64,000 nucleotides of DNA, taken from the NCBI GenBank assembly GCA_002633005.1, contig NMRA01000220.1:382268-446267 (forward strand), written 5' to 3'. Source of the DNA: Phoronis australis. Lineage: Eukaryota > Animalia > Phoronida. Under the pieces are notes generated by a model. The model did no database searches. It saw only the letters and a list, made by a program, of their open reading frames with translations, and had not been told where the DNA came from. A program made the translations under genes and the position numbers. This document shows, piece by piece, positions 29,212-36,863 of the stretch. Position 1 is the stretch's first letter. Each line of letters starts with the position of its first letter.

Positions 29212-29266
29212 TGTAGTAAATGTCGACGTCAGTCTCGGCTGTGGCGTCTCTATGTTGTGATGTCCT
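29212..29266. repeat. Left arm of 55-bp inverted repeat (pairs with 31750-31804)
   Basis: TGTAGTAAATGTCGACGTCAGTCTCGGCTGTGGCGTCTCTATGTTGTG is a perfect 48-bp reverse complement of 31757-31804; the match extends to 55 bp with one mismatch. Confidence 0.95.
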
Positions 29267-29425
29267 TTTCATTAACAATGTTGGTCTTGGCCTGGTGCGA
29301 CATCTGACGCCAGAAGAGCCCAGCCGAGGTCACCCTGCTATCAAGTGACCCGTCACCCTTCAAGACCACGTGACAAGATCGCCTGGGCCTTCTGGAGTTT
29401 GCGGCCGTCCTGTGCGGGCGTAATG
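29256..29425 (-). repeat. LTR R/U5-like direct repeat, 3' copy
   Basis: Matches 36048-36210 with ~5 substitutions and one ~7-bp indel; ends ...GGACATCACA on the minus strand. Confidence 0.9.
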
Positions 29426-29429
29426 CTTG

Positions 29430-31715
29430 ATGGCAAGTGCTCGTCGAACAACTGCAACAAAACCCAGCTCTACCAAGGAACAGATTTACTAGGTCTCACG
29501 ACCATCGGACAGATTAAATCCAAAAACAGTGAACCCATTTGGGGGATCAGAGAAGAAGAAAACCGCATTTGCTGCAGTTTATGAAAATGGAGGCATTCCT
29601 TGCAGGTTTAGTCCATGGCTCAGTTAAAGGAGCATGCCACCCAAAAAACAACCTAATTTGTATCAATTTAGATCGAGTAGTTCTACTCCATAAGGACACG
29701 TACGGTTGCGTTACCCGACACCTGATGGCAGACGGAAGTGTTGAAATTATCCAATGACGTCATCGGTTTCATACGCAGTCTGTTCATCAGTTCACAACAT
29801 GGGTTACTGGTGTCAGCTTATCGCTTGAAGTAATCGTTTAACACCAATAAATCATCAAACTTCGATGTAAAACCCTTAAAAATACACCGAGTTCTTATAA
29901 AAACGTGTTGTTTTATTTCGCTCGTACGGATTTATTGGTATTTGGACACACCGTAGCCTACAAAGCTCGGCAGGCCAATAAGGTCCGGAGCAGGAGTTTG
30001 GGGTCTGTTCGGAGATAATTTCGAAGTATTTTCCGTGAGATACCGACAGAAGAGCTTAGATCTGTATTGTTTAAACTTGTGATTTTTGAGTTCTAAACAA
30101 AAACGCTTGTTATCCTGGCCAGGGGCTCGGAGCCAGATCAGGCCCGTCGCGGCCGGCCGGACTGACTCGTTATCTATCCCGGCCAGTGGCTTGGAAACTG
30201 ATCAGACATCACGAACATAAACCAGCCAAAGTTCAGTGGAAAGTAAACTTCCAGTCAAGAAAATACTAGAGTGGTGAGCCAAAGTAATGTGCACGTGATT
30301 ATGTTGGTGAATTAGCCACGAAACTGCAATTAATCTACTTACTCGTCGGGGGCCGCCAATTCAGCACCGTCAGGGCAGAAGTTGTACATTGACAATCATT
30401 ATTTGAGTAATGTCAATGTAAATAAAGAATACCCTAACACCTGGCAGTGGGATGGAAATCGAGTTGTTTCATAACAGTTTCTGCCAGCAAACACTAAATT
30501 AGCACCTATAAAGCTGGTAACGCAGTGATTTCATTGCTGGCTTCTCAAATCATTTGCACTCACGAACACTCCACAGGCATTACAAATTGCATCTAATGAG
30601 ACAGACTTTGTTTAAGTTTTATATATTATTAAGTATTGGTTAGGGTGAGAATAGTTCATTTTGAAACAGAACGCTCAGTAATAAACGCCAACATGACAAC
30701 TCGCAATCCCGACTTAGGACGAGCTAGAGCGGCTCATCAGTCCCGACTTCGCAGGTGGATCGTTAAGTTTTAAAGGCTACCAATTCGAACAGGAATACAG
30801 TGATGAAGAAATACTAGAGAGGCGCCGTGAACAAGCTCAGACAACGGAAGTATGGAGTTGTTTGGTAAGCCGGCATTCGATCGCCGGGCACTGTCGACGT
30901 CGGCAGGCCACAGACACGAAGATGTTTCACGGCCTCATACTTGCTATATACAGCGTACATTTCATTCTTCACTACCATGAGCCACTTCCTAAGCATTTCG
31001 GACTTTCGAGGAAGTAAAAAAACGATATACCCGCTTTTCTCGCAGCTGCTTTGTTCGGACAAGCGGGAACGATGCACCGCAACATAGCGGCATTCACTAT
31101 GCATATGAACCACTGACGTCGCTAGCCTCGTTTCTCACCTTCCTCACAGGTTAACGCGACACCTCTTGGCAAGGTAAGGTCGACCGTATGCGAGGCGATG
31201 TGGATATAGACCGATTAAGACGGCAAAAAAGACTAATTAAATCGGGTGGCATTCTCCTTTAAGCATAAGCTAACTTGGGATACTCCACCTGAGTATATGT
31301 CGCATATGACCCAGTTCTCTGCACTCTCGCCGAGGGTCTTAGAGAGACAGTTCACCCATATGCATTTGTAGCAAGAATGGGTTTCAAGGAGTTGCTGGCT
31401 ACAGAGGGAGCTGGCGAGAAAACACTTCCTGTCCTAGCGAGTGTATCGGCGTCAATCAGAGCCGCATTGATTTCTAGTGATCACACAGTATTTGAAGCTG
31501 GAATTGATGCCCTTGAACAAGTGAGCAATGCAGTCGGGCCTGCACTCAATCAGTACTTAAAACATATGTTGGCGCCAATTTCTAAAAAGATATCGGATAA
31601 AAAGTTTAGAGACACAGTTACAGAAAAGTTGCATACACTTGAACAGAACGGAGGAAAGGATGCTCTGCTATTAATCAAGACAAAAATTCCAACCTATTCA
31701 TCAATTCACATGTGA
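29430..31715 (+). pseudogene. PACRGL: Intronless PACRG-like (PACRGL) copy, interrupted by a Kolobok insertion
   Basis: MASARR...[19 protein letters not shown]...[62 protein letters not shown]...IKTKIPTYSSIHM*. In-frame TAG at 29490, +1 frameshift at ~29607, +2 at ~31297. No introns and no poly(A) tail. Confidence 0.92.
29628..31258 (-). mobile_element. Kolobok-type non-autonomous element, copy 3
   Basis: Reverse complement of 10593-12276; TTAA duplicated at 29624-29627 and 31259-31262 within the PACRGL V-K codons; THAP remnant in ORF 30814-31113. Confidence 0.92.
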
Positions 31716-31749
31716 CATTCCTTAATGGACAAGTATCTTCTCGAAAGCT

Positions 31750-34348: not shown

Positions 34349-35804
34349 TTAGACCTGATCGTCCAGCCCCGACTCGTTTAAATCATCGGACTTATCCCCA
34401 AAGGATGTACGACGAATTCTAGCAGAATGCGGGCTACGGCACGCAGACTGGTAGTGACCAAACTTACCACTCTTAAAACACATTACTGAAGATCTCTGTG
34501 GGGAAGTTTGGGGGGACCTAGATAGTGGAGGGGATCTAGATGGTTTTGGATTAGAATCCAACAATTTTAATACCCTCGACAAATCTGAGGTAATGCCCCT
34601 AAAATTCGAACTCATAGTCTGGGACATACTCTTAAGTTCTCGATTTATAAGTGCATTGTCTTCTTTAAGACCTATTTCAGAGTTGACCTTAGCCATCTGA
34701 GACTCTAAAGCATGCAGCCTAGACTCAACCGCAGAAATTGAAGCAGAGGATGCTATTGGACCGAATTTAAATGCAGTTTTTTTGTGCTGCGAAAGCAGGT
34801 TGACAGAAGCTTCGTCATTGCGTGATGGCGAGCCCTGGAACCAAACAGACCGACGGTTTTGATTTGCCATCAATCGCTGGGTCGTTGCGAACCATGCAGC
34901 TTTAGACTCTGCCTCAGCTAGGGATACAGGGGATGAGTTCATCACCTGCGTACCTGCAACCTTATCTCGTAACCCAAGGGAGAAACGGAATACAAGATCT
35001 ACTTCTTCATGATCCGAAGGGTTCGGGAAGGCTTTTAAAAATAACCCGTTCAACCTACACGCCCAGTTCTGAATAGATTCCCCCTGCTCGGCGTATTGGA
35101 ATTCAAGGCGTAAGACCTGGGTGCAGTTAGTCGAAGAAAAATGTTCTGACATGTGTGCAACCACGTCATCGAAACCAAAGTCTGGGTTCGCTCTCATGAA
35201 ATTAAGGAAAAATGTAAGGCAACATCGTCCAAACACATTCCTAGTTCAGAGACGCACTTGTCTTCGGACCATAAAATGTCCTTGGCTTAGCGCTGGAATT
35301 TCCAAAAAAAAATCGTCCCACTTGCCTTTTTCCCCTAGAAACACTAATTTAGATGGGGCATTTGACCTTAAACTATAGGGACGGGTGTGGGTAGATGGAC
35401 CAACCGTTCGGCTACCAGAACTTGCGGCAGGCATAGACGAAGAAGAATCCTGCTTAGTGGAGTACTTCCTTCTTACTGTAACGGGATTTTTTCAACCTGT
35501 CACAGGCCTGGGCAATGCCACTTAAGTCCTGGGGCAAACGGGTACGTACAGGACTACCCAGAGGAGAGGTATCTCTGGACTGAGCATCACCACCATATTG
35601 GGTGAAATCAATACCAGAAATAGCACTCCTCGTCAACCTCCATCCGGAATGGATGTGGTTAATATTTTCTGGGGTTATCGGCTGAGTTTGCCGAAAAGCC
35701 AGAATGGTTTGGGCAATATCTTCTGTCATGCCCGAGAGCTTGAATAACTCTTGGGAAAGACAGGAGTTTACCGGAACCCTGTCTTGAAAAGACATACTAA
35801 ACAT
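34349..35804 (-). pseudogene. Gypsy-type Gag with N-terminal ComEA-like helix-hairpin-helix and C-terminal zinc knuckle (frameshifts and one stop)
   Basis: HhH: VPVNSCLSQELFKLSGMTEDIAQTILAFRQ. Capsid: KLVFLGEKGKWDDFF/WKFQR*AK..WSEDKCVSELGMCLDDVAL...LEFQYAEQGESIQNWACRL...KAFP...RFSLGLRDK. Knuckle: CFKSGKFGHYQSAC (CCHC with second C to S). Confidence 0.88.
34376..34382 (-). promoter_or_regulatory. -1 ribosomal frameshift slippery heptamer T TTA AAC at the end of gag
   Basis: GAT TTA AAC in the gag frame, followed by 8 codons and then the stop; the -1 frame has no stop from here to 33669. Confidence 0.8.
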
Positions 35805-36047
35805 ACGGGGCTTTGTCTAAGGAAAAACCACGTGGTCACGTGATCTATTCTAGAATTCCTAGAAAGGTTCTAAAATTTAACAAATATACAAAACAATAAA
35901 TAACAAACTATACTATGTACAATTTTAACCAATAATAAATACCTATAATACAATTCCTACAACTCACAACAAACGCTTTGGTAGCCTACACTCTTATTTC
36001 CCGCCACCATCGAAAGACACCCACGCCGGTCCAACCCCGGAAATAGT

Positions 36048-36210
36048 TGTGATGTCCTTTTCGTTAACAATGTTGGTCTTGGCCTGGTGCGACGTCTGAC
36101 GCCAGAAGAGCCCAGCCGACGTCACTCTGCTATGCCGTCACCCTTCAAGACCACGTGACAAGATCGCCTGGGCCTTCTGGAGTTTGCGGCCGTCCTGTGC
36201 GGACGTAATG
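36048..36210 (-). repeat. LTR R/U5-like direct repeat, 5' copy
   Basis: Matches 29256-29425; similarity stops at ...CGTAAT|GTAAGT (plus-strand donor at 36210). Confidence 0.9.
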
Positions 36211-36863
36211 TAAGTACATGTACATTCTAGACTTTTCTCTTGCACCGCGTTAATAGGCCGAACTTGTGTGTCTGCTTGGCCAGCCGACCCAATTATTAAT
36301 ACAACATACCAAACTACTCAACTAGGTATATTTCTAGACAGGCAAACAGACTGGCTCGATAACGTCTCTTTCTACACTATAACGCGTTAAAATCAGTCCA
36401 GTGGGTGGGTTCTGATGGCGGGTTTAAATGCAAACGAGCAAACGAATTTGACAAGCCGGTTGCATATGAGGCGAGACAATGTGTATTCTGTAACCAGTAG
36501 AACACTGGAAAATGGGAACGTCTCGGGTAAAGAGTTCGTGGGGCAAAAATTAAGTTGGCATCTTTAAGCAGCCAGTATTGAGTCACTTAAACGAATGTAT
36601 GAGTATGTAGTCTAAAGAAAAAAAGACAACAAGGCTAGACATATTTCCTTCTGACTGGCATGAACGAGACTCCTAGTGATTTAAAGTAAAAATGGAACTT
36701 AGTCATTACCTGTACTCTTCATGTCATCATCAACAGATCACCACCGTCATCAACTCACGGTACTGTGTTGAATTGTGTGGACGAGGATTTAACTAGGTCC
36801 ACTTTGGTAAACCCAGAAACGCCGTGGTCTGCTAACTTGATTGTTATTTTATAGGCTTTTGTT

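Follow-up and report, generated by a model that had tools for sequence, protein, structure and literature searches.

A processed PACRGL pseudogene joined to a Gypsy-type long terminal repeat at its splice donor in Phoronis australis

How does the coding sequence (CDS) of a host gene come to stand exactly at a splice donor inside the repeat of a retrotransposon? The question was raised by a 7.1-kb unit at 29212-36306 of a 64,000-nucleotide stretch of the Phoronis australis genome (assembly GCA_002633005.1, contig NMRA01000220.1, positions 382,268 to 446,267 of the forward strand), hereafter the window, in which a copy of PACRGL adjoins a long terminal repeat (LTR). A sequence-only reading had taken this unit for a gene-capturing retroelement whose LTR supplies an antisense leader exon to host genes. 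The explanation we put forward, to which we would give about an even chance, is that one processed PACRGL pseudogene became attached to a Gypsy LTR, precisely at the splice donor of the latter, through a switch of the reverse transcriptase (RT) onto a co-packaged, spliced messenger RNA (mRNA) composed of LTR leader and PACRGL.

The unit starts with TGTAGT and finishes with ACAACA, and TACC stands on either side of it as a target-site duplication (TSD; Table 1). Its two direct repeats (29254-29425 and 36046-36210) differed at 5 of 163 aligned bases and by 8 gap letters, and their identity ceased in both copies at ...CGTAATG, as the sequence-only reading had noticed. The splice donor that it placed at this break was borne out as well, the GTRAG at 36210 being the sole one on either strand of the 261-bp right copy (36046-36306). 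Both LTRs of the unit have only the leader, the part ahead of the donor, in common. In addition, a 55-bp inverted repeat pairs 29212-29266 with 31750-31804. Termini of the TG..CA type with a TSD of 4-6 bp are those of Ty3/Gypsy elements, and the gag described below is of Gypsy type; two identical direct LTRs enclosing a primer-binding site and a polypurine tract (PPT) in the sense of gag were not found, the PPT lying on the strand opposite to the inferred LTR sense, and no clear primer-binding site was seen by eye in the unit. A DIRS or Penelope element was rejected because of the TSD and of the absence of a recombinase or RT.

PACRGL was identified by a ParcG domain match (E 2e-32), and the best-matching relatives, at ~60% identity, were from lophotrochozoans. 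The junction between leader and PACRGL lies 5 nt before the ATG. The CDS runs from ATG 29430 to TGA 31715 (651 nt when an insertion is left out of the count), is intronless, and is followed by 34 nt beyond the stop, with neither poly(A) nor a TSD of its own. The earlier description of a full-length, intronless CDS with a short tail thus stands as regards its span, its lack of introns and its tail. It does not stand as regards intactness: the copy is a dead pseudogene because it carries a stop (29490-29492), a 1631-bp insertion and shifts of the reading frame at two places, near 29607 and near 31290. Within PACRGL, X1 DNA contigs ended at 29537 and began at 29538, the pattern expected of an intron in the parental gene. 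The poly(A) tail and flanking TSD of processed pseudogenes made by long interspersed nuclear elements (LINEs) were both lacking, whereas an intronless host mRNA without poly(A) or its own TSD, within LTR-element sequence, is what has been reported for LTR-mediated retrocopies (Tan et al. 2016, PMC5131818). An ordinary retrocopy, LINE-type or repair-templated, inside an existing LTR element, with the donor match due to chance or microhomology, would agree with there being one such copy only and with a parent that was not seen. We regard it as quite improbable, in view of the missing tail and TSD, of the presence of one donor per ~310 bp of LTR with the junction only 5 nt ahead of the ATG, and of the leader-PACRGL RNA that we infer below.

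The LTR and its cargo differed markedly in abundance. For this analysis RNA was from two runs (X6 and X7) and DNA from contigs of one sample (X1 and X2), RNA and DNA coming from different samples, and the figures on loose ends rest on the 24 of 99 entries listed. Summed X1 depth was 2,700-17,000 over arm and leader vs. 72-77 over PACRGL, single contigs listed having depths of 26-83; the summed depth is not a copy number, the contrast between LTR and PACRGL amounting to around two orders of magnitude. In the DNA contigs the LTR is high-copy and the PACRGL cargo stands at one-to-two-copy depth. Among the entries listed, the continuation after 29425 was the LTR's own GT(A/G)AGT donor (12 reads in X6, 21 in X7, 4 contigs in X1, and 3 in X2), and 7 of the 7 contigs in two entries past 29425 displayed a donor-type consensus. 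One X2 contig of 998 nt extended 876 nt past 29425. Four joints in X1 and X2 contigs over 29238-29389 corresponded to copies of the family whose leader has lost its middle part or carries another sequence in its place.

A spliced message of LTR leader and PACRGL probably exists, as indicated by arithmetic on depth (~6 and ~10 RNA reads). Leader-sense reads covering 29418 numbered 24 in X6 and 22 in X7; in X6, 8 leader-sense reads departed at 29428 into one other sequence (agreement 1.0), which was seen in one of the two RNA runs. After removing these and the unspliced reads, 7 (X6) and 11 (X7) were left at 29418, and the depth in 29424-29441 demands 6.1 and 10.2 spanning reads, respectively. 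An alternative start at 29428 with another 5' untranslated region (UTR) predicts ~8 and 13 loose ends, which would have been listed ahead of the entries of 7 and 8 reads that were. As for DNA, the window's G at 29418 had an X1 depth of 35.5, which equals the extra depth reaching ~29457 (35.55) and thus implies one contig across the leader-PACRGL junction. The other sequence behind 29428 in the 8 reads may be a second splice partner, an alternative exon or a variant copy.

This message does not derive from the window copy as assembled, because the RNA carried A at 29418 in 36 of 36 and 44 of 44 reads, the DNA junction contig having G like the window, and because its PACRGL had no stop, no extra base (19/19, 5/7) and no insertion (16, 5, and 9 reads). 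PACRGL reads were nearly all sense and differed from the window at several sites. The likeliest source is the parental PACRGL gene with an LTR as its first exon. The alleles C at 29382, T at 29400 and G at 29403 are common to both leaders of the window, rare in the family and absent from most RNA reads, as expected if both leaders came from one LTR template. Identity of the leader with a spliced-leader RNA was rejected, since it exceeds 170 nt, no mixed loose-end class occurred at 29424 among the entries listed, and Rfam gave no matches at E<=1.

Typical copies of the family probably read PPT, arm, leader, donor and ACAACA, with an LTR of 310 bp (arm, leader, donor and 96 bp more, TGT..ACA), because a polypurine tract like that of the window was the largest class of RNA loose ends before 29212 (39 reads at an agreement of 0.63 and 32 at 0.69, mixed with flanks) and because four contig joints, all in one direction, linked the arm with 29360-29389. 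Applied to the unit, an arrangement with both LTRs plus, the donor sense to the element, PACRGL behind the 5' LTR, and 31750-36045 (gag, TatD and PPT) inverted appears a good deal likelier than its opposite, and it fits the TSD and the termini without further losses of ends. At the breakpoints of the presumed inverted block, 13 bases stand at both, 12 of them identical. A scan of the LTR for poly(A) signals gave no orientation.

The proposed origin would begin at the parental PACRGL gene, with another LTR copy serving as its first exon; the spliced LTR-leader-PACRGL message would be co-packaged with element RNA. Minus-strand synthesis may then have jumped from the 5' internal region of the element RNA to the 3' UTR of this mRNA, a switch that would explain the lack of both poly(A) and a primer-binding site. 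Plus-strand strong-stop DNA would next have paired by means of the homologous leader, as far as the donor. Such pairing would account for the family-rare alleles in both leaders, and integrase would have inserted the product. Inversion of gag, TatD and PPT, loss of pol, insertion of the Kolobok-like transposon and point decay would have followed in some order. The sequence-only idea of an LTR leader spliced to a host exon, with the product written into an element, is hence retained in part: the 5' junction looks splice-made and the leader-PACRGL RNA is probable, whereas the antisense orientation and the placement in U3 are probably wrong.

Several points weigh against this reconstruction. No single read or contig spanning leader and PACRGL was displayed, the spanning count being arithmetic on binned depth and the listed loose ends; an X1 contig begins at 29428, and the parent may not share the GCT before TGATG; the message could come from other individuals in which an allele of the retrocopy is intact; and the inversion is an additional, undated step. 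Moreover, arm depth was 1.7-3 times the depth at the leader start, and the 36306 end resembles the reversed leader start (12 of 2000 shuffles). These last two observations would be predicted by an LTR with long inverted ends and a donor antisense to gag, in which a spliced DNA copy of antisense leader and PACRGL replaced most of the U3 of the 3' LTR once, by a plus-strand switch or gene conversion. Such a structure, which retains the donor orientation and the U3 cargo of the sequence-only reading, agrees with gag, TatD and PPT being all minus; however, it demands exact loss of both arms in the 36046-36306 copy with the TSD nevertheless kept, no large class of arm plus unrelated sequence occurred among the loose ends listed, and the opposite direction is indicated by the PPT-arm reads and by the joints from arm to leader, so that we consider it rather unlikely.

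The 55-bp inverted ends, TGT..ACA, and the PPT adjoining the right arm would also suit 29212-31804 as a unit of its own, with a U3 tip at each end (through mispriming of the PPT-primed plus strand at the 3' UTR of the mRNA) and joined to an inverted body in the same faulty reverse transcription, thus requiring no later inversion. Taken alone, however, this segment has flanks that match at 3 of 4 positions (TACC/TTCC), the right one being the PPT itself, and it is the 7.1-kb unit that has a perfect TSD around it; this alternative is unlikely. For the same segment, a Ginger or Pack-TIR DNA element was rejected on account of the PPT, gag and the position of the TSD. An assembly chimera would be compatible with the scaffold gaps elsewhere (914 N), with an inversion lying within repeats, and with two inversion breakpoints that were not displayed on one contig. 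It is extremely unlikely given the TSD, the left junction present on an X2 contig and the leader-PACRGL junction that follows from the contig with the G allele, although the DNA sample may be the assembled one.

The element as a whole lies within the first intron of a host gene. Reads of three raw RNA runs carrying the same species label (X6-X8, ~18-19% of each) and a contig set (X5) were placed on 28600-38200 of the window, and a joint from 29083 to 36854, within one base of GT 29084 and AG 36853-4, was found in 12, 22, and 8 reads (42 in total) and in one X5 contig. The acceptor at 36853-36854, which the sequence-only reading saw as ready to remake the chimera, is present and serves the host's own exon 1. 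The junction from the LTR to 36855 (36209 to 36855), by which that exon would be trapped again, was not among the 15 of 66 joints listed; the trap-ready position is, as far as seen, an ordinary intronic insertion.

A systematic gene trap, in which host exons are joined again and again to the LTR leader of the family by cis or trans splicing and a varied set of cargos is remobilised, is very unlikely. The donor is kept in most listed copies and the 8 X6 reads go on at 29428 into different sequence, both in its favour; against it, the listed DNA continuations were of donor type with no second cargo seen, the possible second partner appeared in one of two RNA runs, and the 36855 acceptor was not seen joined to the LTR. 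The cargo-swapping element proposed earlier likewise finds no support, with PACRGL at single-contig depth beside a high-copy LTR that, in the entries listed, continues into its own donor. There is no evidence here of repeated cargo swapping, one dead cargo having been seen. In a bolder version of our proposal, the donor in the LTRs of this Gypsy/TatD family would be a fixed capture joint, copies upstream of host exons acting as first exons and leader homology rebuilding the messages into integrase-ready elements; we hold this to be distinctly unlikely. If true, full-length host CDSs would be repeatedly retroposed behind an LTR promoter, and the 8 reads would hint at a second partner.

Retroviral oncogene capture follows a splice-then-recombine route. 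The PACRGL case resembles capture through a chimeric virus-host transcript (PMC515179) in that a chimeric transcript would come first and recombination during reverse transcription second, and differs in involving an invertebrate Gypsy retrotransposon, with the donor inside the LTR and a cargo that is dead and not amplified. In the LTR-mediated retrocopies of animals, mRNA replaces part of the internal open reading frames (ORFs), joined at arbitrary points by means of microsimilarities of ~6 bp (Tan et al. 2016, PMC5131818). As in those, host mRNA without poly(A) is flanked here by LTR-element sequence, both termini are kept, and a template switch is presumed; unlike in those, the 5' joint coincides with an LTR splice donor, the CDS is complete, and the internal block has the opposite orientation. 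LTRs of ERVL/MaLR (Franke et al. 2017, PMC5538554) likewise use a sense splice donor to provide host genes with a 5' exon, but they drive genes or existing pseudogenes, whereas here the chimeric message was apparently copied back into an element. No description of a retrocopy joined at an LTR splice donor was found in the literature as judged from titles, and the supplements of Tan et al. may hold such cases. The event is thus a variant of known LTR-mediated retroposition, the new part being the donor-exact joint inside the LTR together with a complete CDS. If our account is true, it provides an invertebrate Gypsy record of gene transduction by the splice-first route that retroviruses are known to take, one by which a complete CDS plus promoter is captured and not a random fragment. 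One dead copy changes little; its importance would rise if several cargos occurred at the same joint genome-wide.

The body of the element is predicted to be that of a pol-less (non-autonomous) Gypsy-type element with a TatD-like ORF3. Its gag had 179 relatives at E<=0.001, the two named representatives being from sea urchin and clam; among 20 of these that were scanned, HHH_3 was seen, zf-CCHC occurred in 18, PNMA and/or Retrotrans_gag plus P0205 in 14, and a fusion to an aspartyl protease in 1. No motif or match for protease, RT, RNase H or integrase was found in 31805-36045, nor any strict acceptor-like site upstream of TatD. A search for the arm pattern in metagenome contigs gave 0 matches, alignment of gag against viral contigs gave 28 candidates with 0 confirmed, and no longer versions of the gag and TatD pieces were found, which is weak evidence. 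The rotifer elements Juno and Vesta (PMC5408684) also carry a nuclease ORF3 in the env slot, DEDDy in their case and TatD here, a name that does not occur in that paper. ORF3s are typically expressed from spliced messages (PMC5408684) and, by analogy, the normal use of the LTR donor would likely be ORF3 splicing. Judged by titles and abstract openings, nothing on a TatD gene in gag-bearing or Gypsy retrotransposons was found.

The insertion within PACRGL is later than the capture. A TTAA target and an AGGRR terminus are marks of Kolobok and T2-MITE elements (PMC6004289), and the TTAA duplication and the RR/AGGRR terminus were found at 29628-31258; unlike in Kolobok, there is no intact transposase here, a THAP-like remnant being visible by eye without any Pfam match for a THAP-H2CH-DDE transposase. 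A second copy lies at 10589-12280 (89%) and a partial one at 1-445 of the window. This family, with THAP-like and P2RX7_C-like remnants, displayed RNA depths of several hundred on both strands.

Table 1. Features of the PACRGL-bearing unit and of its host gene (window positions)
Feature	Position	Strand	Evidence
TSD TACC, left	29208..29211	+	X2 DNA contig crosses 29100-29240 with 0 differences
Host intron 1, holding the entire element	29084..36854	+	Joint 29083 to 36854
Part of the left LTR: arm of 41 bp (likely U3 tip, TGT...) and leader as far as the donor	29212..29424	+	Repeat comparison; high-copy in DNA contigs
PACRGL retrocopy, 5' piece (ATG 29430; stop 29490-2; extra base near 29607; presumed lost intron 29537/29538)	29425..29627	+	Sequence and DNA contigs
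Kolobok-like non-autonomous DNA transposon; TTAA duplication; 15-bp terminal inverted repeat starting AGGAG	29628..31258	.	Sequence; weak P2RX7_C match (E 0.053)
PACRGL retrocopy, 3' piece (TGA 31715), followed by 34 nt of 3' UTR without poly(A)	31263..31749	+	Domain match, relatives
First 55 bp of an LTR (arm and 14 bp), minus reading, immediately after the PPT	31750..31804	-	Inverted repeat
PPT, 14 purines adjoining TG	31805..31818	-	Same tract precedes arm in RNA reads
TatD-like ORF3, broken, three frames	32696..33738	-	TatD_DNase E 1.4e-5 and 0.0034 (below curated cut-off)
Gypsy-type gag, broken: HhH piece, capsid region, zinc knuckle	34349..35816	-	Domain matches and relatives
Right LTR lacking the arm; GTAAGT donor (36210); ACAACA at its end (likely U5 tip)	36046..36306	+	Repeat comparison
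TSD TACC, right	36307..36310	+	Sequence
Host exon 2 (ATG 36864), transmembrane/coiled-coil protein	36855..37694	+	Reads; paralogue 20073-20888

The host gene and 20073-20888 are two paralogous genes with a single coding exon for an uncharacterised transmembrane/coiled-coil protein, the second one (36855-37694) being expressed; an X5 contig differed from it at 36 of 805 bases, reflecting high polymorphism. Another transcribed repeat, at 28600-29005, overlaps or precedes host exon 1, with loose ends at 29005 in >130 reads per run. Elsewhere in the window, a small multi-exon gene with a signal-peptide-like start was seen by eye at 24180-25160; large inverted and direct repeats (89-95%) surround two N gaps at 4620-9920, possibly a foldback element or a collapsed assembly; and tandem arrays occupy 63578-64000 (~64 bp), 49057-49225 (~60 bp), and 52013-52126 (~55 bp).

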